From positions 3,891,406-3,955,405 of the forward strand of contig OY970334.1 of NCBI GenBank assembly GCA_963717445.1: 64,000 nucleotides of DNA, in the 5' to 3' direction. This document shows, one piece after another, positions 8,013 through 56,281 of the stretch. How positions within the stretch are numbered: position 1 is the first letter of the stretch; the number at the start of each line of letters is the position of its first letter. The DNA is from an uncultured Bacteroidota bacterium. Lineage in GTDB: Bacteria > Bacteroidota > Ignavibacteria > UBA10030 > UBA8401. A model generated the notes under the pieces. The model ran no database searches. It saw only the letters and a list, made by a program, of their open reading frames with translations, and was not told the origin of the DNA. Both the position numbers and the translations under genes were made by a program.

Positions 8013-8074
8013 CACCTTATCCTTATTTTGCACGTAATATTTTTAACTTTTCACTTTTAACTTTTCATTGATTT

Positions 8075-8968
8075 ATGCCCCCCGTTATTATTGAAACAAA
8101 TTTCTCTAAACTTCACTTCGTGAAGCGCGGCAAAGTCCGCGATATGTACGAAGTGGGAGACTTCTTTTTGATTGTTGCGACCGACCGCCTCTCGGCATAC
8201 GATGTTGTTATGCCTCAGGGAATTCCCGATAAGGGAAAGGTGCTGACGCAAATCTCCAAGTATTGGTTCGACCTCACGAAAGGTATCATCAAGAACCACG
8301 TCGTCTCGACAGATGTGCAGGACTTTCCGGCAGAGTGTAAACCGTACGCCGATGAACTGCGCGGACGAAGCATGCTGGTGAAGAAAACGCGCCCTCTCGG
8401 CGTCGAATGCATTGTCCGCGGCTATCTTTCAGGGTCCGGTTGGTCTGAATACCAGGAGATGAAAAGTGTCTGCGGGCTTCCACTCCCGGCCGGGTTGGTC
8501 GAAAGTTCGCGATTGCCGTCTCCTATTTTCACACCGTCGACCAAAGCCGAACTTGGAGTCCACGACGAAAACATTACATTTGAAGAAATGGTGAAGCTTG
8601 AAGGGGAAGCTATCAGCAATAATGTGCGGGATATTGCAGTGCAGATTTTCAACACAGCCTCGGCCATCGCCGAGTCGAAAGGCATCATCATCGCCGATAC
8701 AAAAATGGAGTTCGGTACTCTCAATGATGAATTGATCCTCATCGACGAGCTTCTGACTCCCGACTCGTCTCGTTTTTGGCCGAAAAGCAAGTACAAACCG
8801 GGCGGAAGCCAGCCAAGCTTCGATAAGCAGTTTGTCCGGGACTATCTCACTTCGATAAAATTCAACAGGCGAGCTCCGGGACCGATGATGCCCGAAGAGA
8901 TTATTCAGAAAACGGCTGAGCTGTATCGAGAGGCGCTTGTGACGCTGACCGGTAAACACGTTGAATAA
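8075..8968 (+). CDS. purC: phosphoribosylaminoimidazole-succinocarboxamide synthase (SAICAR synthetase)
   Basis: [45 protein letters not shown] is the long-form PurC signature. Confidence 0.9.
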
Positions 8969-9102
8969 ATTATTTCTCGCAAAGCCGCGAAGATTTTTTT
9001 TAGAATTAATTTGCGACTTTGCGTCTTTGCGTGAGCACCCCTTTTTGAATTATTCAGAACTGTCAGGCTCATTTTATTCCACACCGTCAAAAATAAAGGC
9101 AA

Positions 9103-10206: not shown

Positions 10207-10433
10207 TGAAAGAAAGAGTCCTAACATCGTTGGCGGCCGTTCGTCCGTTTTTACAGATTGACGGTGGAGATGTCGAGCTTGTCGATATTACGAGCGACGG
10301 CATCGTCAAAGTGAAGCTCGTCGGCGCGTGCGCATCGTGTCCGATGTCGATCATGACGTTGCGCGGTGGGATTGAACGGGCGTTGATGCTGGAAATTCCT
10401 GAGGTGCGGAGGGTGGAAGCAGTGGCGGGCTGA
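10206..10433 (+). CDS. NifU-like (Nfu C-terminal domain) Fe-S scaffold protein
   Basis: LQIDGGDVELVDI…VKLVGACASCPMSIMTLRGGIE. Start overlaps the apbC stop. Confidence 0.85.
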   Translation: MKERVLTSLAAVRPFLQIDGGDVELVDITSDGIVKVKLVGACASCPMSIMTLRGGIERALMLEIPEVRRVEAVAG

Positions 10434-10456
10434 AAAGCCGTGTTTGTGAAGCAGCA

Positions 10457-12162: not shown

Positions 12163-13568
12163 TTAGTTCCGGATGCAATGAGTTTATAGTTTCCCTGGCG
12201 GCTTGGGTCTTCAAAGATAAATTCTTTATTGAGTGATGCATAGGTCCAGACTTCTCTCGGCGGCCCTCCCGGTGCGAGCGAACGTTCGATGTTCGACGGC
12301 TTGCCATACAAAATATAGATCTTTCCCCGGTCGGTCAGGACGCCGTTTTCCTCTCTCAACGTTCTGAAATTTGCGAACGCGTAGTCGACTCGTTGGAAGT
12401 ACACCGCCATCATCTCGTTGTATGCGGACCCCGGCACGTTGTTGCGCTTTGCCCAGAACTCTTCAAATTTTTTTATCCGCGCATCTCTGCTTCCGCTCCT
12501 GAGATCGTCGTATTCACTGTCGGTGGTAATGTATCTCATTGCCGAGACGGAAAAATCTAAATCATACAACGACAACGGCATGTCCCTCCAGCGGATGGAA
12601 AATTCTTTGTTCACGGTTGCCGTATCCTTGGCGGAAATGTGAATACGGGCTGTATATTGTCCTTGCTTCAAATGCGAGGTCAATAGCGGGAAATAGACGG
12701 TTGCAGTCGTTGCGTTGCTGTCCAAGACATACTCGATGTTTCCGGAATTTGTCGGGAGCAACCGGAGCAACGAATGGTGGATAACAGTCGCTGTTGCAGT
12801 TGTTTCTTCCTGAACGACGATTCGTTCTCTATCTTCCGGCATGAATTGCGTCAACGAGTATCTCACCGTGACCGGCGCGTTTTCGTCCTTGATTGTAAGA
12901 ACCGTTCCTGTGTTCTTTGAGAACTGTGCGGCGTTGTTGTCGTTCAGCGCTGTAAAACTTCGTTCGGATAATGGCCGGTCGGTCGGTTCGATAAACAGGG
13001 CCGTCGATCGGACGACTGCGTCAGGCCGGAATCGAACGACGCGCAAAATTTGTTTTCGGTCCCCAAATTCTCGTTGAGATTCATTATCCTCGAGGTGGTA
13101 CACAGTCGTGAAACGCCCCGGATGCACAACGAACGATGCCGCCCCCTGATAATATTGGAGTCGCAACTGGGTGATTTCGTTGTCCGGGATATCTAGACTA
13201 ATGGCCTGGACTTTTCTGGAAACCGACGTGTCGGTGGAATCGATCAACTCGATGAGTAATTCGCCATGGGCCCGGTATGACGGCACATTGGTCGAAAAAT
13301 CCCGTGTGAAAACAAAAAAATCGAACCGCACCCGGTAGAGGATATCGACCCGCACCAATCCGGAATCCTCGGCGAACATGTGGGGCTCGAAGCTGACAAT
13401 TTCCATTGGCGATCGCTCTCCGGATCTGCCCCCTTCGCCGAATCGTTCCCGTTCTTCATCCTGTGCCTGTAACGGCGAAAAACCTGCAAGCACACAAAGG
13501 AACCCGCACACGGCGAAAAGAATTTCGATCCAGCCTCTACGCATATTTGATATCATGAAGAAATGCAC
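12159..13568 (-). CDS. GWxTD domain-containing secreted protein
   Basis: C-terminal ENGVLTDRGKIYILYGKPSNIE (a GWxTD-like motif with W replaced by V). N-terminal signal peptide/TM. Confidence 0.6.
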   Translation of the reverse strand: MHFFMISNMRRGWIEILFAVCGFLCVLAGFSPLQAQDEERERFGEGGRSGERSPMEIVSFEPHMFAEDSGLVRVDILYRVRFDFFVFTRDFSTNVPSYRAHGELLIELIDSTDTSVSRKVQAISLDIPDNEITQLRLQYYQGAASFVVHPGRFTTVYHLEDNESQREFGDRKQILRVVRFRPDAVVRSTALFIEPTDRPLSERSFTALNDNNAAQFSKNTGTVLTIKDENAPVTVRYSLTQFMPEDRERIVVQEETTATATVIHHSLLRLLPTNSGNIEYVLDSNATTATVYFPLLTSHLKQGQYTARIHISAKDTATVNKEFSIRWRDMPLSLYDLDFSVSAMRYITTDSEYDDLRSGSRDARIKKFEEFWAKRNNVPGSAYNEMMAVYFQRVDYAFANFRTLREENGVLTDRGKIYILYGKPSNIERSLAPGGPPREVWTYASLNKEFIFEDPSRQGNYKLIASGTK

Positions 13569-41525: not shown

Positions 41526-42155
41526 ATGATTGAATCCAATAACATACCGCAGCGGATGGTTAACCAGGCAGTTGTTAGCGTTACCGATTCTTCTCTTGAC
41601 CAGCAGAGTGATGATGTCCTCATCACCCTTTTTCAGAGCGGGGAAGAGGGAGCGTTCCGATTTCTCGTTGAACGATACAGCCAGCGAGTGAGGAATCTGA
41701 TTTATTCAATTTTTAACGAGTCGTCAATTGTTGACGATATAGCACAGGAAGTTTTTATCCGTGTGTATGAAGCGTTGCCGAGGTTTAGGTTTGAATCCTC
41801 ATTTTACACATGGTTGTACCGCATCACTGTCAACAAAAGCCGTGATGAATTGCGGAAAAAGAGGGCGCGAAGGTTTTTTTCTCTCCATTCGATGCTCAAT
41901 GCCTCGAACGCTGAGTTACAATCAAAAATCAGAGTTTTCCCTGAAGATGGTTCGGCAAAAGAACTCGTTAATAAAGGGTTGCAGCAACTTCCCGAAAAAT
42001 TCCGTATTCCGATCATCCTAAAGGATATCGATGGATTGTCATACGAAGAAATGGCGGAGATCATGCAGTGCGAGGTCGGCACGGTGAAATCGCGGCTCTC
42101 GCGCGCACGTGCGATGATGCGCAAGATCTTAACGCCATTGCTTGATGAACATTGA
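41526..42155 (+). CDS. ECF-type RNA polymerase sigma factor
   Basis: Sigma2 (FRFLVERYSQRVRNLIYSIF…DIAQEVFIRVY…YTWLYRITVNKSRD) and sigma4 (LSYEEMAEIMQCEVGTVKSRLSRAR) regions. Confidence 0.85.
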   Translation: MIESNNIPQRMVNQAVVSVTDSSLDQQSDDVLITLFQSGEEGAFRFLVERYSQRVRNLIYSIFNESSIVDDIAQEVFIRVYEALPRFRFESSFYTWLYRITVNKSRDELRKKRARRFFSLHSMLNASNAELQSKIRVFPEDGSAKELVNKGLQQLPEKFRIPIILKDIDGLSYEEMAEIMQCEVGTVKSRLSRARAMMRKILTPLLDEH

Positions 42156-42177: not shown

Positions 42178-42702
42178 ATGAAATCAATTTCTACAAAAAA
42201 ACTGCAAAGGACGCTGTCTCTTTACATTGATGATGCGCTTGACGAAGGGGCCAAAGTCCGCTTTGAGGAATACCTTGCCGGCAATCCCGACGTTGCATCG
42301 GAATTACAAGCATGGAAGGAACAGCGGGAACTTTTGAAATCCAAGCCGGGCGTTCAGCCGAATGAATGGTTTTGGCAAAAGCTCTCCATTCGTTTGGAGC
42401 AACAAGAGAAAAAGCCGGAGACTCTTTATCCGTTCTCCCGGAAGTACCTGCCTCTTGGCGCGACCCTTACCGTGCTTGTCGCTGCATTTGCCGGAGTGTT
42501 AGTATTTCAGCAGAGATTGTTGTTGACGAGATTTTTTTCAGAAAAAAAGGGGCAGGTGCAACAGCTCTACCAGGGAAACATTTTGCAGGGGAAACTGTTG
42601 CCGCTGTTTACCAATCTCAATAAGGATCAAGTTTTGCAGTTTGCGTTGTTCGGAACGCTGCCCCTCGAATGCACAGGCAAAAACCGCATTGCGGGTGGAT
42701 GA
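42178..42702 (+). CDS. putative anti-sigma factor (single-pass membrane)
   Basis: Immediately downstream of the ECF sigma. N-terminal cytoplasmic segment, one TM helix (LPLGATLTVLVAAFAGVLVF), then an extracytoplasmic tail. Confidence 0.6.
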   Translation: MKSISTKKLQRTLSLYIDDALDEGAKVRFEEYLAGNPDVASELQAWKEQRELLKSKPGVQPNEWFWQKLSIRLEQQEKKPETLYPFSRKYLPLGATLTVLVAAFAGVLVFQQRLLLTRFFSEKKGQVQQLYQGNILQGKLLPLFTNLNKDQVLQFALFGTLPLECTGKNRIAGG

Positions 42703-43615
42703 AAGCAAGGAAGACGGTGCCCGCATCGAGTTTGCAAAGAACGAAGCACAGCAACATCCACCGGTAACTGTGGAGCAGTTTTGCAGGGAAATCAACGCGA
42801 CCCCCGCTCAGCACAAATCAGTCGACTCAATCTTGTCGTCGGCAAGAGACAAAATTCAGGAATCCGTTTTCCTGGGGGAGAACAAATCGCTTGCAGTTCA
42901 CGCTGACCTTGCGAAGTTTAACCGAACGATGATGTCGCGTATCGCTGCGAGCCTGGAATTGCCCCAGCAAAAGAAGTTTCAGAAATTTCTCACGATGTCG
43001 CAATCGCCGTACACGTTTGTTATTGCTCACGCCCCGGCGGCAACTGCCCCTCTGCCGGAGCCGCGAATTCCCCGGATACCGGGGATGGAACAATTTGTCA
43101 TCATAACTCCGGACAGCTGTACGATTGCCCGCGTCAAGATCGACTTTCAGCAAATTCAACGCAATGGGGCTTTGTCGGCGCAGGAGGCGAAGTCCATGGA
43201 TGAAAGAGCGCATGCCTTGATTCGGGAATTTGCCGAACACGCTCACGGGCAGAAAAGGGTGAATTCATCACTCAGTATTTTTTCGGGTTCGGACTATTAT
43301 AGCATTAAAGTAGAGAATAATGTTTTAGAACATTCCCCCGATGCTATGCCTTTCGAAGTCATTGCCCGTGCTCCCCGGGCAGTTCAGTTCCAATACGAGT
43401 TGCATCAAATGCCCGGCGTCCAAAAATTTTTTAATGAAGATTCCGAGCCTTCGGACCACATTTTTCAGAATGTTCCTCCCGGCGCATGGAGAAAAAGTTC
43501 AACCCGCGGGCGTGCCATCGACCTTGACTCCATTATCAGCGCTCCGCGGGACAGGAAATCTCAGCGACAACTGGATCAAGGCAAAAAAAGATACGATAAT
43601 CCGTTCGAGCTATAG
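42695..43615 (+). CDS. hypothetical protein, third gene of the ECF sigma unit; possibly a frameshifted C-terminal domain of the anti-sigma factor
   Basis: ORF in a +1 frame overlapping the anti-sigma 3' end. Candidate GTG start at 42695 in a GTGGATGA overlap. Pro/Ala-rich linker (APAATAPLPEPRIPRIPG). Confidence 0.45.
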   Translation: MDESKEDGARIEFAKNEAQQHPPVTVEQFCREINATPAQHKSVDSILSSARDKIQESVFLGENKSLAVHADLAKFNRTMMSRIAASLELPQQKKFQKFLTMSQSPYTFVIAHAPAATAPLPEPRIPRIPGMEQFVIITPDSCTIARVKIDFQQIQRNGALSAQEAKSMDERAHALIREFAEHAHGQKRVNSSLSIFSGSDYYSIKVENNVLEHSPDAMPFEVIARAPRAVQFQYELHQMPGVQKFFNEDSEPSDHIFQNVPPGAWRKSSTRGRAIDLDSIISAPRDRKSQRQLDQGKKRYDNPFEL

Positions 43616-44499: not shown

Positions 44500-44779
44500 G
44501 AGTAAAACTCCCTTCACCTTCAAAAATCTTTTGATTCAAAAGAAAAACGTCGTGATGAAAAATTGGCAGGTAAAACAACCTCGAAGAGTTCTGGTCGTCT
44601 GCAATTCATAATTAAAATTAAACAAACAATGCCTCTAAGTCAAGCATATTTTTGGGAGGTTGGTGCTTCTTCCTGCATCTCGCCGCATGCAAATAAAGAC
44701 ATGATGGTATAGTGTTTATCGTTAATCATCCTTGATATTCGACTCATTTTATGGTAAATTCTTTACATAAAGTGGTTTT

Positions 44780-44853
44780 GGGCCCTTAGCTCAGTTGGTT
44801 AGAGCAGCTGACTCATAATCAGCGGGTCGGAGGTTCAAGTCCTCCAGGGCCCA
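44780..44853 (+). tRNA. tRNA with CAU anticodon (Met, or Ile2 read as lysidine-CAU)
   Basis: Manually folded cloverleaf: acceptor GGGCCCU/AGGGCCC with discriminator A; D-arm GCUC…GAGC; anticodon stem GCUGA/UCAGC with loop CUCAUAA; T-arm GGAGG-UUCAAGU-CCUCC. C4-G69 and C5-G68 resemble tRNA-Ile2. No CCA is encoded. Confidence 0.9.
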
Positions 44854-45072
44854 CATTCGGATATTATTATTCTCCCCTTACGGTGTTTTTCGACCAACCT
44901 AAGGTTTTTGTTTTATGGTTACATTCAGCGGGAGTAGAACAAAGGCTTTCCGGGCATCAATAATTTGGTGAGATTAGTTGAAAGGACGATTTTTGCCTTC
45001 ACGAGCGGACGCATTGTCGGCAGATAAGTCCGCTATTTCACAGCGCTTATTAGCAAACAGAGAGATTATTAT

Positions 45073-45828
45073 ATGACGGAAAATGAGAAGGATATGGAAT
45101 TGCTCCGCTCCGATCCCAACTCTCTGATCATAAAATATCAGGAAACCGTTAAAATTATCGTCAAGACGTATATTATCAGGGGGATATTCAAGGCGACTGA
45201 GCTGGAAGATATCGTGCAGGAAGTGAATGCGTCGCTTCTCTCTAAAATTCCCGCAATGCAGTCCCAGTATAGCGGGATGTCTCTTTTCAAAACGTATTTT
45301 TCTGTCATCGTCCGAAATATTTGTTTGAAAGAGCATGCAAGAGCCGGCAGGGAAATTACAGCCGACCAGAAAAACTCCGCAGGTTTCATCGATCCTCGTC
45401 ACAGTGATGAAAAATTTATTTTTGAGCACGAGATACAGAGATTCAAAACAATTCTCAGTCTTTATTACAGTCAACGTCCAAAACTTCTACTCTGTTTGAA
45501 ACTACATTATAGAATTCCGTTGACCCCGGAAGACATCGATGTATGGTATCCGACATGCAGTTCTGAGGACCGAAGCATTTTGTTGGAACATTTTGGTTCA
45601 CGGTTTGATGAGGAGAACGATGCTGAAATTTATAAAATTATTACGCCCATCATGAACAAAAACGAAAACAAATCTAATTCAGTTGACGCCGTGCGGAAAT
45701 GGACTGATTCCAAGATTCACGAAATTGTGGATGTGTTGAATGGAACCCCAAAAAGGCTGAATTACAATGAGGAAGCCTTAAGGACTTTAGTGGATGACTT
45801 TTTTTCTCCATTTTTGCTCGGAAAGTGA
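45073..45828 (+). CDS. divergent ECF-like sigma factor with C-terminal extension
   Basis: Sigma2-like LIIKYQETVKIIVKTYIIRGIFKATELEDIVQEVNASLL…FKTYFSVIVRNICLKEH and sigma4-like RPKLLLCLKLHYRIPLTPEDI. 251 aa, so longer than typical ECF sigmas, and AT-rich by eye. Confidence 0.6.
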   Translation: MTENEKDMELLRSDPNSLIIKYQETVKIIVKTYIIRGIFKATELEDIVQEVNASLLSKIPAMQSQYSGMSLFKTYFSVIVRNICLKEHARAGREITADQKNSAGFIDPRHSDEKFIFEHEIQRFKTILSLYYSQRPKLLLCLKLHYRIPLTPEDIDVWYPTCSSEDRSILLEHFGSRFDEENDAEIYKIITPIMNKNENKSNSVDAVRKWTDSKIHEIVDVLNGTPKRLNYNEEALRTLVDDFFSPFLLGK

Positions 45829-45870
45829 TATATATGTACATGGGCTCAAACCAGACAAAATTTCAGGAGG

Positions 45871-46632
45871 ATGAGCTTGGGTATCATCCGTAATTATAGT
45901 GCAATCGGTCAATATGCTCATCTAAGTGAGGAAGAGCTTGCGATCTATGTTGATGCTCTAAAACTGAATAAGGTAGACTCGTTGCCAGATGCGGTTCTCC
46001 GGCATGTCAGCGATTGTGCAGAATGCAAATCGGAAATTGTTGAAGTTGCATCCCTCATTAATGAAGAATATCTCCTGATAGAGACTCAACCATACTTGGC
46101 CCGGAAAGCCAAGCTAAAAGTTGCAGGATTCTCGATAACGTATCGAATCGCAGCAGTCCTTCTCATCGGAATAAGTCTCAGCGTAATTTTTTTTCTTTTC
46201 CGATTAATGAATGCCGATCGAGGTGGTTTGAACGTCTCACCGGGGTCGATACAAACCGTGCGTCCGGAAACCGGGAAAGGTCCGGCAACAGGAGAGAGGG
46301 GAATGAGTCAACAAGGAATTCTTGCGGACAATTTTTCCGAGTCGCCAAATTTGGAAGATTATGTAAATTCTGCATCCCGGTCGGCTTCCTCCGTCGTCCT
46401 ATCGCCAAACAATGGTGCTGTAGTGCATCGACAAATTAGGTTTGAATGGAAGCCGCAGGGGGTGGGGCCCGTCACAGTAAAAATTCTTTCGAACAAAGAA
46501 AATGTATTGAAGAGCGTTAAGCTCGTAGGGTCAAAATTTCTTTTCACCGAAAAACTTAAGCCCGGTTTATATTACTGGAAGCTCGAAAGCAAAGACGAGT
46601 TGTTGTATGTTGGGAAGTTTTTGGTGAAATGA
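45871..46632 (+). CDS. zinc-finger (ZAS-type) anti-sigma factor, single-pass membrane
   Basis: H-x3-C-x2-C motif (RHVSDCAECK), one TM helix (AAVLLIGISLSVIFFLF), and a 130-aa extracytoplasmic domain. Confidence 0.6.
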   Translation: MSLGIIRNYSAIGQYAHLSEEELAIYVDALKLNKVDSLPDAVLRHVSDCAECKSEIVEVASLINEEYLLIETQPYLARKAKLKVAGFSITYRIAAVLLIGISLSVIFFLFRLMNADRGGLNVSPGSIQTVRPETGKGPATGERGMSQQGILADNFSESPNLEDYVNSASRSASSVVLSPNNGAVVHRQIRFEWKPQGVGPVTVKILSNKENVLKSVKLVGSKFLFTEKLKPGLYYWKLESKDELLYVGKFLVK

Positions 46633-46640
46633 AAGGTCGC

Positions 46641-49600
46641 TCATTTCCCGACAAGAATAAACCCGCTCCATTTTGATGGAAAAGCTGTTGATCGGTGGCG
46701 GATCATTCGTAATTTTGATTTGCGCAATGCTGAAGAAAAGGAGTCTCCTTCAAGCACGTGGCTGTAGAATTCTACCATGAGTGTATTCGTTTGGTTGTCA
46801 AACACCTTCCACAATGAGAAAATGATATTCCGAGCGCCTGAATAAAAGAACCCGCGCGTCATTGCTATCACTCCCTCTCCTTTGACAAACTTTCCTAAGC
46901 CGCTTTCGCAACTGCTGAGAACAAGTAGGTCTGCGTTGAGACTTAAATTATACATCTCGCTGGCGTATAATATGCCGTCTTCGGCGGCCGATGAATTTTT
47001 AGGCTGAGAAAAGAGAAGCATGGAGAGTTGAGGATGTTCTTCATTGATATACCCATGAGTTGCGATATGGATGCAAGAATATTTTCCTACATTCATCTTA
47101 AAATTTTCTTCAGTAGCGCTGTTATACAAGAAACTCGCTCCGTGCATTCCCTTCTGCTGAAAGTTGCCGGCTACTAAAGCAACTTCTTGTTCAGAATACT
47201 TTAATTCGCTGAACCTTTTACCGTCGACAGTAATCGAGCGAAGGGCAGTCGGGCTTTTCTCAAGTGCCTGGGAGTTTGAAAGAAATATTCCATTGCTGTC
47301 GACATCCCGGAAAACAGGCGCAAACCCAACGAAGCTTGGATGATTTCCAGTCGATGAGTCTATTTGGAGAAGTCGGTTTAAGTAAAAAGAAGAGGAGTAA
47401 GAATATGAAATCTCATACGATTTCACCAGATAATCCAATTTTGTGAAGTCGATCTCTTCGTTTAGCCGGTGAGGAATTCGGGTGATGAGGGCTTCAAACG
47501 GAAGATAATACAGCATGCCATCCGGGATGATGACGAGCCTGGTTTTGCCCGCCAATGTTTTTGCCAATGGACGGACGAGAAGATCGTACAGATCGCTTCC
47601 GGTTCGCACATATTCCGACACCCCAACGGTTTTTATTGCCTGGTAAAAAGTCGATGTAAGACTGTTGAAATTTGCCGGAATCGGAACTGCAAGAACATCA
47701 AACGACGACTTCGTGATCGTAAAAATCGCGAGTGAAGTTCTGCCGATAAAATACTCGATGACAGCTGTTTTTTTATCGATCGCATCTTGTATGTCACGAA
47801 TTGTTGCCGTATGACTTTTGTACTTTAACTCATAATAGTGCGGGTAAACATTCTCAAGGAGCGCCGACAATTTCTGCGATTCATTGTTAAGAGCGAAGCA
47901 CTTGTCCTGCAGTAAAATAATTTTTGTGCTGTCTTTTCCTTCCTTTTTGTCGTTTTCTTTCTGGAGTTGAGTTTCGTTATAGGCTAGATCGATCTTTAAC
48001 ATTCTCTCCTTCTCGATGATAGAGTCGGGAATGTTGGCGAATCGTTTTGCTTCAGAATCGTGAAGGCCGTCGAGTAATACGTTTGCCTTGCTGTTTTCCG
48101 CAAAATAGAAGGCCGATTCCTGGTAACGCGGATCTCTCGTGGCGTTAAATAACTTCAAGCTGGCGCGAACTGCATTTTGAAATAACGAGTAGCTTTGTTC
48201 TTCAAGGAATAGTTTTGAACTCTCGGTAGTAATTTTTTTTCTCAGCTCATTGAGAATTGTTACGGTGCAATCATATGTTGCAAGGCTAGCTTGCAGGTCT
48301 TTCAAGGCATGAGACTTGTACGCATAATATTTTTCTAACGCCAGCGCCTTTACCGAAAGTATCTCTATGAGATCTTTGCTGTTTGCAATGCTGCATTCTT
48401 TTGGGTTAACGTAAATTGATGTGTCTGTAAATTCCTGTAATAGTGCATTTGTTGATTGTTGATAATACTTTAACGCTGCAGTAAAATTGTTTAAATGTAA
48501 ATAAACATCTCCCAAGCCTTTTAATGTCGCAGCTAGCTGGGGCCGGTTTGGATCGGGCAAATTGTTGTGAAGGTGAAGAGCCTTGTTGTAATACTTGAGT
48601 GCTTGATCGAAATTGTTCATTTTCGAATAGACCAAACCAATTTCCGAGTAGAGGTTGGGAATGTCGCTTCGATCATATGATTCTTTTAAGCGCGAACGTA
48701 TTCTCAAAGCTTCTTGCAAATATTTTAATGAAACGGCATACTCGCCACGCTTCCTATAGATATTGCCTAATATTTCATATGTGAATGCCAGTTCTGGATG
48801 ATCCTTTCCTGTTATTTTCCGCTGAAGGGTCAATGCGCCTTTAGATAAAAGAATGGCGTTGGCTAAGTCATTCTTATCTGCATAAACCGATCCTAACTGT
48901 CTCGTTTCTAATGCAACGAATGAATGATTGCTCCCCACATATTTCTTCTCTAATGAGATGGCTTTCTGGTAAAATTCTATTGACTTATCAAAATCACCCT
49001 CGGTTTCGTATAACCTGCCTAACTTCGAGTAGCAACTAGCAAGATATAAATTATCTTCTCCCAAAATGTTCCGATAAAGCTCTACGGCTTTAGTAAGGTG
49101 TAAGATCGCCTGATCGCTCTCGCCCTTTTCTGAGAAGACCCATCCGATCAGGTTTTCGCAATCCGCAGTGACAGAGGCATATTTTCTTTCACTATTGTTG
49201 GTGAGTGAATCTGCACGTTTGAAATAGCTCAAAGCAGAATCAAATTCACTTCTCAAAAAAAATACAAGTCCGATTCCCGAAATAGTAATCACCCGATTAA
49301 ATTGATCACTGTCATTTTGAACATTGTATATTCGTAATGCGTTGTTGAAAGGCTCAACTGCTTGGTCATAATTGCCTTTTTTCATATTTGCAATACCTAA
49401 CAGGTAATTACTTGCTGCGACGTATTTATGATCCTTTCCTAATTTGTTTTCTCTGATTTTCTTACCCTTCAAAATATTTTCAATCGCTAGATCAAATTTC
49501 TCCCTATCGATATATAAAAGGCCAATGATACTGTATGTAAGCGCGCATTCGAGATTATCCGGTTGCAGATTTTGTTCTTCTACATCTCGAGCCCGATGTA

Positions 49601-49898
49601 AAATCGCTTCCATCGAATCGAGGGCGACTTTTCTCGACAGGCAGTCCGCAATAATGTTCAAGCAATGGACATATCGTTCCCAACTTTTTGTTTTCTCAAA
49701 AATTTTAGCGGCTTTTTGGAGATCGATGATAGAACTGTCGTACTCTACTTGAAGATAAAATTCCATCGCTTGTTTGACGAGAATTTCCGCTTGCGCGGTG
49801 TCCTCCGGCGCCGGTTGCGCATGGCAATATTGTGCAATCAGGAATATGCTTGCAATGGACGCACTTCGAAGAGAGTATGTTCCGAAAATACTTCTCAT
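46641..49898 (-). CDS. secreted TPR-repeat protein with C-terminal CHAT (caspase-like) protease domain
   Basis: 1085 aa. N-terminal signal peptide (MRSIFGTYSLRSASIASIFLIAQYCHAQ). Many TPR-like repeats (…A…Y…G.Y..A). C-terminal CHAT with His (CIHIATHGY) and Cys (LVLSSCESGLG) dyad. Confidence 0.8.
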   Translation of the reverse strand: MRSIFGTYSLRSASIASIFLIAQYCHAQPAPEDTAQAEILVKQAMEFYLQVEYDSSIIDLQKAAKIFEKTKSWERYVHCLNIIADCLSRKVALDSMEAILHRARDVEEQNLQPDNLECALTYSIIGLLYIDREKFDLAIENILKGKKIRENKLGKDHKYVAASNYLLGIANMKKGNYDQAVEPFNNALRIYNVQNDSDQFNRVITISGIGLVFFLRSEFDSALSYFKRADSLTNNSERKYASVTADCENLIGWVFSEKGESDQAILHLTKAVELYRNILGEDNLYLASCYSKLGRLYETEGDFDKSIEFYQKAISLEKKYVGSNHSFVALETRQLGSVYADKNDLANAILLSKGALTLQRKITGKDHPELAFTYEILGNIYRKRGEYAVSLKYLQEALRIRSRLKESYDRSDIPNLYSEIGLVYSKMNNFDQALKYYNKALHLHNNLPDPNRPQLAATLKGLGDVYLHLNNFTAALKYYQQSTNALLQEFTDTSIYVNPKECSIANSKDLIEILSVKALALEKYYAYKSHALKDLQASLATYDCTVTILNELRKKITTESSKLFLEEQSYSLFQNAVRASLKLFNATRDPRYQESAFYFAENSKANVLLDGLHDSEAKRFANIPDSIIEKERMLKIDLAYNETQLQKENDKKEGKDSTKIILLQDKCFALNNESQKLSALLENVYPHYYELKYKSHTATIRDIQDAIDKKTAVIEYFIGRTSLAIFTITKSSFDVLAVPIPANFNSLTSTFYQAIKTVGVSEYVRTGSDLYDLLVRPLAKTLAGKTRLVIIPDGMLYYLPFEALITRIPHRLNEEIDFTKLDYLVKSYEISYSYSSSFYLNRLLQIDSSTGNHPSFVGFAPVFRDVDSNGIFLSNSQALEKSPTALRSITVDGKRFSELKYSEQEVALVAGNFQQKGMHGASFLYNSATEENFKMNVGKYSCIHIATHGYINEEHPQLSMLLFSQPKNSSAAEDGILYASEMYNLSLNADLLVLSSCESGLGKFVKGEGVIAMTRGFFYSGARNIIFSLWKVFDNQTNTLMVEFYSHVLEGDSFSSALRKSKLRMIRHRSTAFPSKWSGFILVGK

Positions 49899-50430
49899 CC
49901 TACTCGGGAGTGTTCTGTGTATTGCACATTTTACACCAGGGGCACTTTGTAGGGCATGCTATCTTGTGACGGGTTATTTTAGGTCGGATGTTCCCCAGCC
50001 CCATTTAGACTCTTTCATTCAGAGCGATCAAATATTGATCAAATCAATTGTACAAAATTGGCCAGAAAGAAACAAAGCTTTTATAACCCCTGAACATCGA
50101 GGACAAATAATAAATAGGCTAGTTGAAGAATACTGATTTTGCCTAAAAAGAGAATCGAGTTTTTGTTTAGGCATTATTACTCTCAATCAACAGTGATTTT
50201 TGATGTCGTTGCTAATGCTGTTTCCAAAAAAATAACTCATTTACCGCAAAGGTCGCTAAGGACGTAAGGATTTCTTCGTATTTTTACAAAAACTTCTTCG
50301 CCGCCTTAGCGTCTCAGCGGTTATAATGCAAGATTTCGAATCGGAATCGGCACTTGGTGATGAAATTTTGTAAACGTGGGTAAAAAATAAACGTTCAAAA
50401 AGGGGACATGATTGTTTAACTTCCCAATCG

Positions 50431-50480
50431 ATTGTGCAAGTCGCAGCCGCTCTCCCCCAGTGGCAGACGACTTGCACAAT
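50431..50480. promoter_or_regulatory. 13-bp perfect inverted repeat in the 880-bp divergent intergenic region
   Basis: ATTGTGCAAGTCG (50431-50443) and CGACTTGCACAAT (50468-50480) with a 24-nt G/C-rich spacer. Confidence 0.4.
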
Positions 50481-50779
50481 TCTTTCGTGACAGCGGTTTC
50501 TCCAGTGGCCCGAGCACCTCTATCTCCCACCGAGGAATGGGCTGTTCGTTGATTGGGTTATTTCATATACACATATATATATCCCGGAGTAGTTAATTTT
50601 GGAGATTATTCTTCAAAAATATTTCACTTATTGTTTCATTTTGTATGAGCGACTTTCGCTTAGGTTTGGTCAAAACCAGGCAAAAAAGTATTTTTTAATG
50701 ATAAAAGTGTTGCATAGAGGCATCCATCTTACTTATATTTTAGGCAAGGAGAAATGCCCACTAAGAGTTCTTCCACACA

Positions 50780-51187
50780 ATGACCGAACTTCTTTTCACA
50801 ACGAGAGATGTTGCCGACATGCTTCAAGTCGATAAATCGACAATCAAGCGGTGGACCGATGAGGGGAAACTGAAATGCTTTCGCACGCCCGGGGGACACA
50901 GAAAATTCCGTGCAGAGGACCTGTCCCAGTTTATGGCCGATTACAACTATAACATCTCTGCCGCGAATTTTTTACCGGTCGCTGCGAGCGACGAGGCTAT
51001 CTTGCGTGGAATGATTGTCCAGAAAGAGTTCAATGTTTTGGATTCTGTCTGCTTCTCTACGGCAATCAAAGGGAACAAGAATGATCTGCTTAAATTGTTT
51101 TCGGAAGCATACAAAAACGGAATGAGCCTGCCGTTGATGTTTGACAAAATCCTGCGTCCTACAGGTACAAAAGATATCTACTCTTAA
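50780..51187 (+). CDS. HTH (excisionase/MerR-like HTH_17) DNA-binding protein, N-terminal part of a CarH/LitR-like regulator
   Basis: TTRDVADMLQVDKSTIKRWTDEGKLKCFRTPGGHRKFRAEDLSQFM HTH, followed by a helical region. The ORF ends at 51187 and overlaps the next ORF in another frame. Confidence 0.7.
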   Translation: MTELLFTTRDVADMLQVDKSTIKRWTDEGKLKCFRTPGGHRKFRAEDLSQFMADYNYNISAANFLPVAASDEAILRGMIVQKEFNVLDSVCFSTAIKGNKNDLLKLFSEAYKNGMSLPLMFDKILRPTGTKDIYS

Positions 51188-51692
51188 CACCTCCGGTAAA
51201 TTGCTTTTATCCGAGAAGCAGTTGGCATTGAATTCGCTTTCCAATGCTATCGTTCTTCTCTCTGATATTATCGTTAAGCCCGCTCTCAACGGTAAAATTG
51301 TAATTTGCGCTATGGTTGAAAACGATTCCGACGATCTTGAATTGAAAGCGTTGGCGGTGCTGCTGGAAAGCGGGGGTTTTGAAGTGTTAAATCTCGGGGT
51401 TGGGACTTCGGCCGACTCGATTGCTCAACTTGTGAAAAACAAACAGCCGCATTTTGTTTTCCTGATGGCTTCAAATGTTCACGATGAGGAGCTTTTGGAG
51501 GATGAACACGAGAAAATCCAGAGTGAGTTGCAATCGTACGGCGGTAAGTTAATCGTTAGCGGTCCGGCGTATACTCAAGAACTTCTCACCGGCAGACTTG
51601 CCGGTTTATTCTATAAATTCTGTCCGACTTTTAAAGAGCTTACCATGGTGCAATATGAAAGAATTGAGTTGAAGAAAAAAGAAAAAGAATAG
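51141..51692 (+). CDS. B12-binding-like (Rossmann) domain protein lacking the canonical DxHxxG His; possibly fused to the upstream HTH gene (split or frameshifted)
   Basis: GKIVICAMVENDSDDLELKALAVLLESGGFEVLNLGVGTSADSIAQLVKNKQPHFVFLMASNVH matches the cobalamin-binding domain layout, but ENDSDD replaces GDxHDIG. A TGA in this frame at 51135-51137 limits upstream extension. The start codon is uncertain. Confidence 0.55.
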   Translation: MTKSCVLQVQKISTLNTSGKLLLSEKQLALNSLSNAIVLLSDIIVKPALNGKIVICAMVENDSDDLELKALAVLLESGGFEVLNLGVGTSADSIAQLVKNKQPHFVFLMASNVHDEELLEDEHEKIQSELQSYGGKLIVSGPAYTQELLTGRLAGLFYKFCPTFKELTMVQYERIELKKKEKE

Positions 51693-52255: not shown

Positions 52256-53203
52256 ATGTCTATTACCGTTCGTAATCTAACCAAGTTGTACGGTGAAGAG
52301 AAAGCGATCGATGACATTTCGTTTGACGTAAAGACGGGAGAAATTCTCGGCTTCCTCGGACCTAATGGTGCCGGCAAAACGACGACGATGAAAATCATAA
52401 CCTGCTACATGCCCCCGAGTGCCGGGAGTGTGACAGTTGATGACTATGACATCGGCGACCATTCGCTTGAGGTGCGGCGCAAGATCGGTTATTTGCCCGA
52501 ATTGAACCCGCTTTATCTAGATATGAATGTTCTGGAATATCTCGAATACTCCGCTCAACTTCATAAAATGCAAAAACTTCAGATCCGCCAGCGAATGCGG
52601 GAAATGATCGAGGTGTGCGGATTATCCGGAGTTCGGCATAAAGACATCGGCGAGCTGTCGAAAGGATACCGCCAGCGAGTAGGGCTGGCACAGGCGATGA
52701 TTCACGACCCCGACGTGCTCATTTTAGACGAGCCGACGAGCGGGCTTGACCCGAACCAAATTGTCGAGATTCGGAATCTCATCCGCAAACTCGGCAGCGC
52801 AAAGACGGTGATTCTTTCCACGCATATTCTTTCCGAAGTACAGGCAACGTGCGACCGGGTTATTATCATCAACGAGGGAAAAATTGCCGCGGATGGAACC
52901 CCCGATCAACTCCAGCATGAATTCCGCGGCTCCGATATCATCTCCATCGAGCTGAAAGCAAACGTTGAAAACGGCATGACCGAAATTTTTCCGAAAATTA
53001 AATCGCTCGCGAATGTGGAAAACGTTCAGTATCAGAACCCTTCACCGGGGATACACCGGTTGGTCATTACGGCGGGGAAGGGGTCCGATATTCGCGAGGA
53101 CCTTTTCCGCCAGGCAGTGAGCGAACAATGGGTGTTGCTTGAAATCCACCGTGAAGCAACAAGCCTTGAAGAAGTGTTCCATAAGCTCACGACTGTGAAT
53201 TAA
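52256..53203 (+). CDS. ABC transporter ATP-binding protein (GldA-like)
   Basis: Walker A GPNGAGKTT, LSKGYRQRVGLAQAM signature, Walker B LILDEPTSGLD. Confidence 0.9.
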   Translation: MSITVRNLTKLYGEEKAIDDISFDVKTGEILGFLGPNGAGKTTTMKIITCYMPPSAGSVTVDDYDIGDHSLEVRRKIGYLPELNPLYLDMNVLEYLEYSAQLHKMQKLQIRQRMREMIEVCGLSGVRHKDIGELSKGYRQRVGLAQAMIHDPDVLILDEPTSGLDPNQIVEIRNLIRKLGSAKTVILSTHILSEVQATCDRVIIINEGKIAADGTPDQLQHEFRGSDIISIELKANVENGMTEIFPKIKSLANVENVQYQNPSPGIHRLVITAGKGSDIREDLFRQAVSEQWVLLEIHREATSLEEVFHKLTTVN

Positions 53204-53231
53204 TCGTGCTATTCATTGACGGGATTTGTGT

Positions 53232-53843
53232 ATGGGTTCAGAAATGAGCTGCTCGATGAAATATGGCGGGAAGGTATTCAAAGGGAAAGCCCTGCTTGAG
53301 ACCGACGAGCTGATCTTTCGCGGCGAACAACGGCTGACGATTCCGTTCAAGAAAATGAAGTCTGTTGAAGCCAACGATGGAGAACTGACGATTGTCTTCG
53401 ATGGCGGCACAGCTTCATTTGTGATCGATACAGCAGCCGAGAAATGGGAAGAAAAAATTTTACATCCAAAAAGTATTCTGGAAAAAATTGGCGTAAAGCA
53501 CGATTCGCGGGTGAGCGTTGACGGTGTGACGGACAAGGAGTTCCTGGATCAATTGAGAGAGAAAACAGATGATGTCTCAGTCACGGAGCTGCAAAGAGAG
53601 TCCGATATCATTTTGTATGCGGCGGACAGCAAAAAAGAGCTTGTCAAGCTAAAGGGAATTAAACAATTTCTCAAAAAGAATGGGGCCATTTGGATCGTCT
53701 CGTCGAAAGGAAAGCAGGCAAAGATAAAAGACACCGACGTTATGGCAGCGGGAAAAAAGGCGGGCCTTGTCGATACAAAAGTCGTTGGATTTTCCGAGAC
53801 ACATACGGCATTGAAGTTTGTGATACCGGTAAACAGTAGGTAG
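53232..53843 (+). CDS. hypothetical protein
   Basis: ORF between the ABC ATPase and permease genes. No recognised motif. Start uncertain (ATG at 53232, 53244 or 53256). Confidence 0.4.
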   Translation: MGSEMSCSMKYGGKVFKGKALLETDELIFRGEQRLTIPFKKMKSVEANDGELTIVFDGGTASFVIDTAAEKWEEKILHPKSILEKIGVKHDSRVSVDGVTDKEFLDQLREKTDDVSVTELQRESDIILYAADSKKELVKLKGIKQFLKKNGAIWIVSSKGKQAKIKDTDVMAAGKKAGLVDTKVVGFSETHTALKFVIPVNSR

Positions 53844-53935
53844 TAAGCAGTAAGCAGTAAACAGTAAACAGTCATAACGCACCGATACCTAATAGTCAAC
53901 ACCTAAAACCTTTCATTTACAATCTACAACGAACC

Positions 53936-54676
53936 ATGCATTTCGATTTCACAAAATTTTTCAGCGGATATTCGAACGTCGGACCGATTTTTCGGAAAGA
54001 ATTGCGCTCGTATTTTAATTCCGCGGTAGCGTACGTTGTTATCGTCGTTTTCCTCGCCATCGTCGGATGGTTTTTTACCAGCAATCTTTTTTTAATGAAC
54101 GTCGCGTCGATGAGGATGATGTTCGAAGTCGTCCCCGCCGTATTCCTTTTCATTATCCCCGCAATTACGATGAGATTGTTGTCCGAAGAGAAAAAAACCG
54201 GGACGATAGAGCTGCTGACAACGAAACCAATTTCCGATTCCGAGATTGTCCTCGGCAAATTTTTTGCGGCGTGGACTTTGGTCGGAATTGCGATGCTGCC
54301 GACGCTTCTCTATTACATCACGATTGCGTTCCTCGGAAACATCGATAACGGCCCGGTCATCGGGGGGTATTTCGGGTTGATGCTCATGGCGGGGGTGTAC
54401 GTCGCAATCGGTTTATTCGCCTCGAGTTTAACGGACAATCAGGTTGTCGCTTTCATCCTCGGGTTCGTTTTTGTTTTTGCGCTTTATATGCTGGACAAAA
54501 TATTGTTTTATGTGCCGGAATGGATGACGACAACGGTCGAATTTCTCGGTGTTGATTTTCATCTTTCAAACATCGCGCGTGGAGTGATCGACACAAGGGA
54601 TGTTATTTATTTCCTCTCGATGCTGGGGTTCACGCTTTTGCTATCAGTCGGTTCGCTACAGAGAAGAAAATGGTAA
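53936..54676 (+). CDS. ABC-2 type transporter permease (GldF-like)
   Basis: Six predicted TM segments. Follows the ATPase. Confidence 0.8.
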   Translation: MHFDFTKFFSGYSNVGPIFRKELRSYFNSAVAYVVIVVFLAIVGWFFTSNLFLMNVASMRMMFEVVPAVFLFIIPAITMRLLSEEKKTGTIELLTTKPISDSEIVLGKFFAAWTLVGIAMLPTLLYYITIAFLGNIDNGPVIGGYFGLMLMAGVYVAIGLFASSLTDNQVVAFILGFVFVFALYMLDKILFYVPEWMTTTVEFLGVDFHLSNIARGVIDTRDVIYFLSMLGFTLLLSVGSLQRRKW

Positions 54677-54709
54677 ACAGAATTAGCATTTTTACATTGA
54701 AACGGTAAA

Positions 54710-56281
54710 ATGACGACGATGAACACAAAAAGAAATCAAGCAATCATACGGGCGTTACTGGTGCTCGGCATTCTCATCGTTGTGAACGTTATCTCGGTCC
54801 GCATTTTCGACCGGCTTGACCTCACAAAGCAGAAAGTGTACACGCTTTCAGATGCAAGTAAAAAGCTCGTGCGTTCCCTCGATGACAGAGTGACCGTCCG
54901 CGCATATTTTACCGAGGACCTTCCGTCGCCGTACAACGATAACCGGCGCGAAGTCCTGGACCTCTTAAACGAGTACAAAGCGTACGCCGGCGGCAATCTG
55001 CAATACGAATTCATCAATCCCGAAGGAGATAAGGGAGAACAAGAGGCGCAACAGCAGGGAATTCCTCCCGTGAACGTACAGGTTGTGAAGGAAGATAAGT
55101 TCGAAGTAAAGCGAGCGTACCTCGGCCTTGTGATGATGTACGAGGACAAAAAAGAAACGCTGCCGGTGATCCAAAACCTCGGGTCGCTTGAATACGACAT
55201 CAGCAGCGCATTGAAACGATTGACCACGCGCCAGAAGAAACGCATTGGTTATACGCTTGGGCACGATGAAACGGATTTGTCGACGATGAAGGAGGCGTAT
55301 CAGACGCTCTCATCACAGTATGAACTTACGCCGGTGAACTTGACTGGAAACGGAAGTGTTCCCGCCGACCTTGCGGCATTGCTCGTGATAGCGCCTCAGA
55401 AAAAATTCAACGACTCCTCAAAATTTCAGATTGACCAATATTTAATGCGGGGTGGAAAAATAGCGTTCTTGTTGAATAAAGAAAATGCAAGCCTCCAGGC
55501 GCAGTATGCTCAGCCGTTAGACCTTAACCTGGACGATCTCCTTGCCCAATACGGCACGCGTGTCAACAACGATCTCGTTCGAGATGCGCAGTGTGCAAGC
55601 GTCAATGTTGTTCAGCAGCAAATGGGTTTTACGATGCAGAGCCAGGTTCCTTTTCCGTATATGCCGATGGCATCGGGCTTCAACAAAGATAACATGATCG
55701 TCAAGGATTTGCAGAACGTGATCTTCTATTTTGTAAGTTCCATCGATACCAGTTTTGCATCTGCGAAAGGATTGAGGGAGCAAGTGCTGGTGAGTTCATC
55801 AAAACGGAGCGGGCGGCAAACCGGCTTCATCGCGATCGATGCGTTCCACCGCTATACCCCCGATGAGCTTGCAGAATCGAATATTCCGCTGGCCGTGGTC
55901 GTGGAAGGATCATTCAAAAGTTTGTACGCGAACAGGCCGATGCCGGGGCTTATGACATCATCCTCGCCCATGGTGTCGAGCCCTGAAACACGGATCATCG
56001 TTGTTGGAGACGGTGATTTTATGAAAGACGATTTTTCGCGGAACCCCGGCAATCTTACGTTCTTCGTTAATATGGTCGACTATCTTGCGGATGACGCGGG
56101 ATTAATAACCATACGGTCGAAGAACGTTGCGATGCCTCCGCTTGACCAGATCTCGGACGGCACAAAAAATCTTCTCAAGTACGGCGATCTTCTATTACCG
56201 CCCTTTGCTGTTATCGGTTATGGCCTGATTCGATGGCGAACGCGGCTTGCACGGAAAAGAGCAATGGAAGCTTCACTATAA
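54710..56281 (+). CDS. GldG-like ABC-transporter auxiliary protein
   Basis: N-terminal TM, large extracytoplasmic domain, C-terminal TM (LLLPPFAVIGYGLI). Size and position are typical of GldG family. Confidence 0.65.
   Translation: MTTMNTKRNQAIIRALLVLGILIVVNVISVRIFDRLDLTKQKVYTLSDASKKLVRSLDDRVTVRAYFTEDLPSPYNDNRREVLDLLNEYKAYAGGNLQYEFINPEGDKGEQEAQQQGIPPVNVQVVKEDKFEVKRAYLGLVMMYEDKKETLPVIQNLGSLEYDISSALKRLTTRQKKRIGYTLGHDETDLSTMKEAYQTLSSQYELTPVNLTGNGSVPADLAALLVIAPQKKFNDSSKFQIDQYLMRGGKIAFLLNKENASLQAQYAQPLDLNLDDLLAQYGTRVNNDLVRDAQCASVNVVQQQMGFTMQSQVPFPYMPMASGFNKDNMIVKDLQNVIFYFVSSIDTSFASAKGLREQVLVSSSKRSGRQTGFIAIDAFHRYTPDELAESNIPLAVVVEGSFKSLYANRPMPGLMTSSSPMVSSPETRIIVVGDGDFMKDDFSRNPGNLTFFVNMVDYLADDAGLITIRSKNVAMPPLDQISDGTKNLLKYGDLLLPPFAVIGYGLIRWRTRLARKRAMEASL

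Follow-up and report, generated by a model that had tools for sequence, protein, structure and literature searches.

The closest described counterpart of the gene module reported here is DdvA of Myxococcus xanthus, in which an anti-sigma factor is fused to a periplasmic TPR-CHAT part and whose partner DdvS is a sigma factor of the extracytoplasmic function (ECF) type (PDB 8ROT, 8RW5 and 8RLZ; PMC11506125). Removal of the TPR-CHAT part makes the anti-sigma factor a substrate of RseP, and a site-1-like self-cleavage of the linker by the CHAT domain was proposed, not demonstrated (PMC11506125). Fused DdvA-like proteins have been reported only from Myxococcota and one Comamonas species. Our module was found on a stretch of 64,000 nucleotides (nt) from an uncultured Bacteroidota bacterium (GenBank assembly GCA_963717445.1, contig OY970334.1, positions 3,891,406 to 3,955,405 of the forward strand), and "the window" refers to this whole stretch throughout. 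The module consists of genes for a sigma-like protein (SIG), an anti-sigma-like protein (ASF) and a TPR-CHAT protein that is predicted to be exported.

Two further systems connect CHAT proteases with sigma factors, both of them in CRISPR loci. The TPR-CHAT protease Csx29, part of the Cas7-11 Craspase of type III-E systems, was shown experimentally to cleave Csx30, an inhibitor of CASP-sigma (PMC10028731). A type III-B CRISPR locus encodes together a CHAT protease (SAVED-CHAT), a C14 caspase-like protease (PCaspase) and a sigma factor (PCc-sigma) (bioRxiv 10.1101/2023.06.23.546230). In the window and its relatives, SIG, ASF and TPR-CHAT are linked whether loci are collected from the sigma side or from the protease side, and we consider it very probable that the three proteins act in one pathway.

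Organization of the locus

The three genes and the features recognised in their products are listed below; each gene corresponds to an open reading frame (ORF).

45073 to 45828, plus strand: SIG, a 251 amino acid (aa) protein resembling the sigma-70 family and belonging to a discrete family
45121 to 45357, plus strand: sigma-2-like domain of SIG, about residues 17-95, with invariant D46, Q49, Y75, R81 and N82
45415 to 45813, plus strand: family-specific C-terminal seven-helix domain of SIG, residues 115-247, from the predicted structure; its identity as sigma-4 is unproven
45871 to 46632, plus strand: ASF, a 253 aa single-pass anti-sigma-like protein
45919 to 46026, plus strand: putative zinc site of ASF, H17 ... 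H45-x3-C49-x2-C52, within its cytoplasmic N-terminal part, from the alignment
46129 to 46206, plus strand: transmembrane (TM) helix of ASF, about residues 87-112, N-in/C-out, Kyte-Doolittle 19-residue maximum 2.48
46318 to 46629, plus strand: periplasmic domain of ASF, from alignments, with an 'ADNF..SPNLE' motif, an invariant R-S and a beta domain with the end PGLYYWKL...GKFLVK
46641 to 49898, minus strand: TPR-CHAT protein, 1085 aa, predicted to be exported, with matches to Pfam CHAT and TPR families
46644 to 47606, minus strand: CHAT (caspase-fold) domain, residues 765-1085, PF12770
48429 to 49571, minus strand: TPR array, about residues 110-490, Pfam TPR_12 at 1.6e-60 in seven stretches, also TPR_1, TPR_2, TPR_8 and TPR_10
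49818 to 49898, minus strand: putative signal peptide, residues 1-27, MRSIFGTYSLRSASIASIFLIAQYCHA with QP following the cleavage position, hydrophobic core KD11 = 2.1

An earlier reading of the window, made from its letters alone and referred to here as the sequence-only reading, had placed the three ORFs at exactly the positions given by the ORF list and had described the TPR-CHAT gene as directly convergent with ASF, in agreement with the 8 nt that we find between the two stop codons. SIG and ASF are co-oriented and spaced by 42 nt. The G+C content of the region is about 40-50%, as in ordinary chromosome.

Conservation of the three-gene linkage

On the sigma side, loci (numbered with the prefix L) were collected by look-ups of diverse SIG homologues and a scan of species-representative genomes. 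A TPR-CHAT gene was found beside SIG-ASF in all 20 of the 20 distinct loci of the window's SIG clade, and the linkage persists down to about 33% SIG identity. ASF follows its sigma gene on the same strand in every locus with downstream DNA, including those with canonical ECF sigmas. The module occurs in at least six unrelated flanking contexts (the window type, a MetK/AhcY...SurE type and at least four others) and in three gene orders. SIG>ASF><CHAT is the dominant one, with a gap of 3-15 nt or an overlap between the convergent genes; CHAT>SIG>ASF was found with overlapping genes on one strand in a Chlorobiota metagenome-assembled genome (L017), and SIG>ASF>CHAT>C14 in L033. Conservation of the three-gene neighbourhood in other genomes had been put forward by the sequence-only reading as a check, and the neighbourhood is conserved.

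L012:8757-10123 carries a 1.4-kb insertion sequence between SIG and ASF, with a split DDE transposase (190 + 210 aa) on the opposite strand. In L033, which belongs to an 8.9-Mb genome, the four genes are co-directional (4321-10455) and both proteases have signal peptides. The C14 protein of this locus, which carries CarboxypepD_reg and Fib_succ_major domains, is a second clan-CD protease that is exported, and the arrangement is reminiscent of CHAT-to-caspase cascades. The window itself is without a C14 protease gene.

On the protease side, a search for TPR-CHAT homologues led to L033 and to relatives without the SIG-ASF pair. A metagenome scan with an alignment of the CHAT domain provided 80 loci, in which ASF-type genes were called with the family profile at E<1e-5. 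At a CHAT identity of at least 40%, an ASF-type gene was adjacent in 19 of 26 loci, and only one locus without it had both flanks visible (19 of 20 decidable loci). The share was 7 of 13 at 36-39% identity and 5 of 41 at 29-35%. The metagenomes contributed 31 loci with CHAT and an adjacent ASF-type gene, which was convergent and directly after the CHAT stop in 26 of them. A SIG-family protein was present in 12 of these 31 loci and not detected in the other 19. The gene beyond ASF, examined in ten of the SIG-less loci, encoded a sigma-like protein of 173-288 aa each time, and six of the ten proteins passed Pfam gathering scores (Sigma70_r4, r4_2 or ECF). Sigma-like proteins, canonical ECF sigmas among them, occupy the place of SIG in these loci, which identifies the SIG position as a sigma position and leaves ASF and CHAT as the conserved core. 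The linkage, which is well above chance, stays tight when gene order, flanks or sigma family change and supports a joint function of the three proteins.

Features of the TPR-CHAT protein

The CHAT domain matches PF12770 over its full length (E=2.1e-61, 208 bits, model positions 2-289 of 289) and contains both residues of the catalytic dyad, His948 (IATHG, codon 47055-47057) and Cys997 (LSSCESG, codon 46908-46910). The intact His/Cys dyad claimed by the sequence-only reading is thus present, and on alignment, where its conservation was to be checked, both residues are invariant in 17 orthologues including the most distant one, L017 (about 24% identity by tblastn). Since many surrounding residues are invariant together with the dyad, catalysis appears to be under selection. 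The only solved protein with significant sequence similarity to this domain is chain B of 8ROT/8RW5, that is DdvA (8ROT_B, E=0.12 with the single sequence and E=6.7e-4 with a profile of 16 sequences), and the dyad aligns to H862 and C907 of DdvA. Similarity to Csx29 beyond the Pfam CHAT family was not detected in sequence comparison.

At the N-terminus, two arginines are followed up by a hydrophobic core of short length and a site of the small-x-small type, as expected of the Sec signal peptide that had been proposed, and an N-terminal hydrophobic segment is present in all 17 full-length orthologues. No further TM or hydrophobic segment was found in the protein. The long TPR array likewise agrees with the earlier proposal, and its sequence matches in the PDB are to TPRs of the kinesin-light-chain type. 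The TPR-CHAT gene at L013:8744-12081 is interrupted, with two tblastn segments in different frames and a longest ORF of 790 aa.

Features of ASF

We obtained 238 ASF homologues. An alignment of 41 sequences has five invariant columns, four of which are H17, H45, C49 and C52 (H-x27-H-x3-C-x2-C). The H-x3-C-x2-C zinc anti-sigma motif pointed out earlier is therefore invariant in 41 homologues and is joined by an upstream ligand, H17. Known anti-sigma models match the family weakly: RseA in 9 of 41 members (best 7e-4, E=0.14 for the window protein), 'antisigma' in 7 of 41, zf-HC2 in 4 of 41 (best 0.043) and RsrA in 3 of 41. Comparison with the N-terminal domain of DdvA (8RLZ) gave E=2.2.

The single TM helix of the sequence-only reading was recovered as one strongly hydrophobic helix that is kept in all ASF homologues. 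Four K/R residues are found in the 15 residues before it and one after it, and we therefore assign the N-in/C-out topology. With the signal peptide of the TPR-CHAT protein, this topology would therefore place the ASF ectodomain and TPR-CHAT in the same periplasmic compartment. The domain make-up of the proteins, their topology signals, the conservation of dyad and zinc ligands and the reciprocal linkage come directly from the data.

Outside the membrane ASF consists of a low-complexity linker, the conserved stretch ADNF..SPNLE..V....RS and a beta-rich domain ending in PGLYYWKL....GKFLVK. TIGR04183, the model of the type A sorting domain of type IX secretion systems (T9SS), matches the extreme C-terminus of the window ASF over model positions 8-72 of 72 (E=0.054, 13.5 bits at a cut-off of 23). 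The model matches 12 of 41 family members, with a best E of 2.5e-5, and Pfam PF18962 matches two of 41. The ectodomain thus has a conserved beta domain, missed in the sequence-only reading, which by its sequence resembles a T9SS sorting domain. ASF itself is anchored by an internal TM helix, with its N-terminal domain in the cytoplasm, and does not have the cleavable signal peptide of T9SS cargo. The anti-sigmas of the protease-side loci share the TM helix, the linker, an 'AANF' motif, the invariant R-S/G and the PGLYYW...GKF end, and these ectodomain features are kept even in anti-sigmas without the zinc ligands.

Every ASF-type ectodomain has an Arg with Ser or Gly after it (R170-S171 in the window), some 10 residues ahead of the first beta strand. 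This pair is a candidate site of cleavage by an Arg-specific clan-CD protease, or its role may simply be structural. A TPR-CHAT relative with 38% identity (L035:1882-7658) is divergent from a gene for a DUF4397 protein with a T9SS Por_Secre_tail domain and has a PorV-like gene near it. This one case fits a link between the TPR-CHAT protease family and T9SS-type sorting domains.

Features of SIG

SIG has a sigma-2 fold, the domain expected of an ECF (group 4) member of the sigma-70 family for core binding and -10 recognition, and scores just below the cut-offs of the corresponding models (Pfam 21.8 bits at a cut-off of 24, TIGR02937 33 at 42.9). The sequence-only reading had recognised both sigma-2 and sigma-4 cores. 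The former stands; the latter does not, since neither a hidden Markov model (HMM) nor a fold search returned a match to sigma-4, and the sigma-4 helix-turn-helix with which ECF sigmas read the -35 element was not found. The C-terminal half is predicted as a confident model of its own (residues 115-251, pLDDT 90.1, pTM 0.84). By eye, and as a reading rather than a result, RPKLLLCLKLHYRIPLTPEDI ... 45 residues ... NSVDAVRKWTDSKI might represent a sigma-4 whose turn contains a two-helix insertion.

A search of 1.84 billion representative proteins with the SIG family profile gave 582 hits (481 at 1e-10), all of about 250 aa, and the family is discrete and does not merge into the canonical ECF sigmas. 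It comprises about 580 clusters at 50% identity. A Lachnospiraceae protein (L028, E=7e-4) matched over sigma-2 only and was discarded as an ordinary sigma factor.

Upstream regions and a small ORF

Two conserved blocks were found upstream of the module genes, and a small ORF accompanies the CHAT gene in related loci.

50037 to 50078, minus strand: conserved block of the type TTGTTT-N17-TACAAT, about 150-190 nt upstream of the CHAT start, window clade
44931 to 44946, plus strand: conserved block GGAGTAGAACAAAGGC between a tRNA-Met gene and SIG, about 130 nt upstream of the latter, window-clade loci only
L004:12861-13004, L029:11266-11415, L030:11076-11219 and L031:11191-11340, plus strand: small ORFs
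L005:10341-10505, L016:~13025-13216 and L001:~12983-13162, plus strand: small ORFs

The block upstream of CHAT is possibly a housekeeping-type promoter, and GGAGTAGAACAAAGGC is possibly a promoter or operator. A consensus promoter scan returned 13 promoter-like sites, with 13.9 expected, and did not call the block at 50037 to 50078. Phylogenetic footprinting, a k-mer census and the consensus scan did not find a motif shared by the SIG and CHAT upstream regions; only clade-specific blocks were seen.

The small ORF is divergent from CHAT and encodes about 47-63 aa, with an N-terminus like a signal peptide, a short mature part and an end with a proline run (PPPP-x-N), for example ...ICYDPNGSLPPPPVN and ...EPGSDDVPPPPPPAN. 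Three of the module's four sub-clades have this ORF; the window clade, L017 and L033 lack it. Because of its absence from the window clade we rejected it as a fourth component of the window module. Where present, the small secreted peptide could be a ligand, substrate or inhibitor of TPR-CHAT.

Proposed function and alternatives

We tentatively propose, with chances that we put just short of even, that the module carries signals from the envelope to transcription and that TPR-CHAT cuts ASF in trans and thereby releases SIG, a cleavage deduced from genomic context and analogy. SIG, with its canonical sigma-2 domain and a C-terminal domain specific to its family, would be an alternative sigma-like factor. 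It would be held inactive at the inner membrane by the zinc-finger domain of ASF in the cytoplasm, and ASF would project its flexible linker and small beta domain, similar to T9SS sorting domains, into the periplasm. TPR-CHAT would be exported to the same compartment by its Sec signal peptide. Its TPR part would sense a signal, and the His/Cys site of CHAT would then cut the periplasmic portion of ASF in trans in a site-1-like manner. Intramembrane and cytoplasmic proteases could then remove the rest of ASF and free SIG. We infer the binding of SIG to RNA polymerase and to ASF and the cleavage of ASF by CHAT, and the same holds for the nature of the signal and for the regulon.

Several observations weigh against this proposal. 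Cleavage by CHAT is a proposal for DdvA as well. The window ASF lies below curated zf-HC2 and anti-sigma thresholds and has no match in Pfam, zf-HC2 included, and a sigma-4 domain is not recognisable in SIG. No promoter motif is shared by SIG and CHAT, and in the window clade CHAT seemingly has a housekeeping-like promoter block of its own. The ASF of L017 has its periplasmic domain replaced by TPRs. A Bacteroidales/Porphyromonadaceae-type clade (L019, L021-L027) encodes SIG-ASF without a CHAT neighbour, and there ASF keeps its periplasmic domain including the invariant R-S; the ectodomain therefore does not need CHAT. Some TPR-CHAT relatives, in turn, have no adjacent sigma or anti-sigma gene (L034, L035). 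The two kinds of partial loci, the second with T9SS-type cargo and a PorV-like gene nearby in L035, speak for a rather unlikely alternative, in which TPR-CHAT is an output or a parallel envelope factor with other substrates, controlled or monitored by SIG and ASF, and the linkage reflects co-regulation or feedback. The sequence-only reading had likewise considered an effector under sigma control. CHAT is co-directional with SIG-ASF in L017 and L033, with short gaps or overlaps, a layout usual for a gene cotranscribed with its regulator, and the second exported protease (Peptidase_C14) of L033 suggests a protease cascade with substrates of its own. However, the convergent layout is dominant and leaves CHAT outside the SIG operon in those loci. 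The lack of a motif common to the SIG and CHAT upstream regions and the housekeeping look of the CHAT block count against such an output as well, and the ASF and CHAT core is kept whichever sigma family is present, which points to a relation with the anti-sigma at the protein level.

Such a relation could also consist in binding alone. TPR-CHAT might be a co-sensor or gate that binds the ASF ectodomain without cleaving it, as a steric shield against site-1 or site-2 proteases comparable to RseB on RseA or as a ligand receptor, with the protease aimed elsewhere, for instance at a secreted peptide. TPR arrays are binding modules for proteins and peptides, and the small proline-tailed ORF beside CHAT in three of four sub-clades is a candidate ligand, substrate or inhibitor. 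The bulky TPR-CHAT of DdvA blocks the access of RseP, and dyad mutants behave like wild type in unstimulated cells (PMC11506125). However, the window clade, L017 and L033 lack the small ORF, the invariance of the dyad and many residues around it suggests selection for catalysis, and nothing points to another substrate, so that we regard such a gate as distinctly unlikely. It is more improbable still that SIG is a different kind of RNA-polymerase-binding or regulatory protein with a sigma-2-like part and that no classical sigma release takes place. The missing HMM and fold matches to sigma-4, the confidently predicted but unmatched helical domain in the C-terminal half, the sigma-2 scores below curated cut-offs and a profile that does not reach the canonical ECF sigmas (582 hits among 1.84e9) are all in its favour. 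That the three genes are neighbours by descent only and functionally unrelated is scarcely credible: many loci do come from one lineage with shared synteny, so that their counts are not independent events, but the linkage is found in at least six unrelated flanks, three gene orders and with different sigma families, and is recovered reciprocally from the protease side. The flanks also speak against the loci being a single mobile element.

The proposal of trans cleavage may be extended to a broader one, which we consider doubtful. The module would then represent a widespread, undescribed Bacteroidota-type class of envelope signalling, in which a free periplasmic TPR-CHAT is a dedicated site-1 protease that acts in trans and recognises or clips the T9SS-sorting-like domain of an anti-sigma family. 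The window lineage would release a new kind of sigma factor with a promoter-reading domain other than sigma-4, and in several sub-clades a secreted proline-tailed peptide could be a ligand or pseudo-substrate.

Neighbouring genes

The module is flanked on one side by FeoAB/Fur, a short-chain dehydrogenase, a Rce1-like protease, homospermidine synthase, a canonical ECF sigma/anti-sigma pair, S21 and tRNA-Met, and on the other by a CarH-like MerR/B12 regulator and a GldA/F/G-like ABC transporter. The tRNA-Met gene (CAT; 44780-44854, plus strand) lies 218 nt upstream of SIG, and a sigma-70-like promoter match is found just upstream of it at 44732-44760. Its position is kept in all window-type loci (L002, L007-L014, L018) and not in other contexts; we rejected it as a module component because it is restricted to the window-type synteny block. 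The neighbouring canonical ECF sigma is encoded at 41526-42155 and its anti-sigma partner at 42178-43615 (plus strand), where a frameshift near 42660-42680 (C- and A-runs) interrupts the gene. This anti-sigma is a single protein of 471 aa in L002, L007, L009, L010, L012 and L018, and L008 has another frameshift in the same gene.

The CarH-like MerR/B12-binding regulator (50780-51692, plus strand) is likewise broken up, here by a frameshift at an A-run near 51165-51172 that leaves two ORFs (135 and 183 aa). Its orthologues in L002 and L009 are intact with about 303 aa, and the split in the window is either a homopolymer sequencing error or a pseudogene. About 220-350 nt upstream of this gene lies a conserved non-coding element (50423-50558, plus strand) with nested helices, CCCAATCAA...TTGATTGGG around TTGTGCAAG...CTTGCACAA, and the loop CTCTCCCCCAG. 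Compensatory changes were seen in 5 of 30 predicted pairs (8 sequences), G-U pairs favour the plus strand, and a comparison with Rfam gave no match. A structured RNA is one possible reading of this element, a nested palindromic operator another. The ABC transporter (52256-56281, plus strand) lies 2.4 kb from the CHAT gene in a neighbourhood that is not kept in L002. Its best matches are to the gliding-motility proteins GldA (391 bits, cut-off 403), GldF (234, cut-off 289) and GldG (315, cut-off 390).

In the CHAT-less clade, which the sequence-only reading had missed, SIG-ASF closes the division cluster, directly behind ftsA-ftsZ and a second ftsZ-like gene (Tubulin and FtsZ_C by Pfam), for example in L019:3751-9592 and in the same way in L021-L023 and L025-L027. 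A sirtuin gene and then dnaG come next in L019, L021 and L027, and in L022 only the sirtuin gene is visible. L023 has an unannotated ORF before dnaG, the arrangement in L025 is different, and the L026 locus stops at SIG. A further SIG-ASF pair without CHAT (L020:6116-12234) is placed between a divergent S41/PDZ tail-specific protease and a convergent LptD; these neighbours could be a coincidence or indicate that another envelope protease is the partner.

The window flanks showed no cas or other defence genes, and PADLOC gave nothing specific, for which reason we rejected an assignment of the module to a defence system. Cas7-11, a CRISPR array and Csx30/Csx31 were not found in the window or in related loci either, in line with the absence of cas genes mentioned in the sequence-only reading.

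Novelty and implications

The sequence-only reading had suggested an uncharacterised CHAT-mediated route to sigma activation. The idea is sound and not unprecedented, since DdvA (PMC11506125) and Csx29/Csx30 (PMC10028731) precede it as a concept. New are the two-protein architecture with a free periplasmic protease, the family of anti-sigma ectodomains resembling the T9SS sorting domain, and the SIG family with its sigma-2 fold and unmatched C-terminal domain. Within an incomplete coverage of the literature we found no description of the module, and the main text of the ECF re-classification paper does not mention CHAT.

The two-protein version makes the CHAT-removal step directly testable, which is hard in DdvA, where protease and substrate form one chain and the signal is unknown. 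The module further indicates that the connection between caspase-like proteases and sigma factors is not confined to anti-phage islands, and it is common in the chromosomes of an under-studied group, with 31 metagenome and 20 genome loci recovered. The SIG family escapes curated sigma models and has no recognisable sigma-4, and would extend the known architectures of sigma factors. The T9SS-sorting-like ectodomain hints at a link of secretion or envelope status with transcription.

Comparison with known systems

In RseA-DegS-RseP and RsiW-PrsW-RasP, as proposed here, a dedicated envelope protease first removes the periplasmic portion of a single-pass anti-sigma factor. The candidate site-1 protease of our module is, in contrast, a clan-CD caspase-like CHAT protein with a TPR sensor and not a serine or metallo protease, and its gene is linked to that of the anti-sigma. 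The genes of DegS and PrsW usually lie apart from those of their anti-sigma factors. In Craspase, as in our proposal, a TPR-CHAT protease relieves the inhibition of an ECF-type sigma by cutting the inhibitor, but Craspase acts in the cytoplasm, is guided by RNA and belongs to a CRISPR system, and Csx30 is no membrane-bound zinc-binding anti-sigma, whereas the protease of our module would be exported. The SAVED-CHAT locus can be likened to the SIG-ASF-TPR-CHAT-Peptidase_C14 arrangement of L033, but SAVED-CHAT is cytoplasmic and activated by cyclic oligoadenylate through SAVED, whereas L033 encodes exported proteases and a TPR sensor.

The last approximately 70 residues of ASF align end to end with the T9SS type A sorting domain and have its typical G.YY.K.....GK..V finish, but ASF is anchored N-in by its TM helix and is not Sec-exported cargo. 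PorU, the peptidase that removes T9SS sorting domains, belongs to clan CD, which offers a possible analogy to the TPR-CHAT protein encoded next to ASF.

With DdvA/DdvS the module shares a zinc-finger anti-sigma domain on the cytoplasmic side and, after a single TM helix, a flexible linker in the periplasm, where a TPR-CHAT with a His/Cys dyad is also located, and the proposed order of events, a site-1-like cleavage of the anti-sigma followed by RseP, is the same. In contrast to DdvA, TPR-CHAT is in all loci seen a separate secreted protein (1085 aa in the window, next to the 253 aa ASF), so that cleavage would occur in trans. The window anti-sigma carries a beta domain of its own, its sigma belongs to a divergent non-canonical family, no CBASS, CRISPR or other defence genes were found in the flanks, and the lineage is of Bacteroidota/Ignavibacteria/Chlorobiota type and not Myxococcota. 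In the model proposed here, the module is in effect a 'split' version of DdvA/DdvS.

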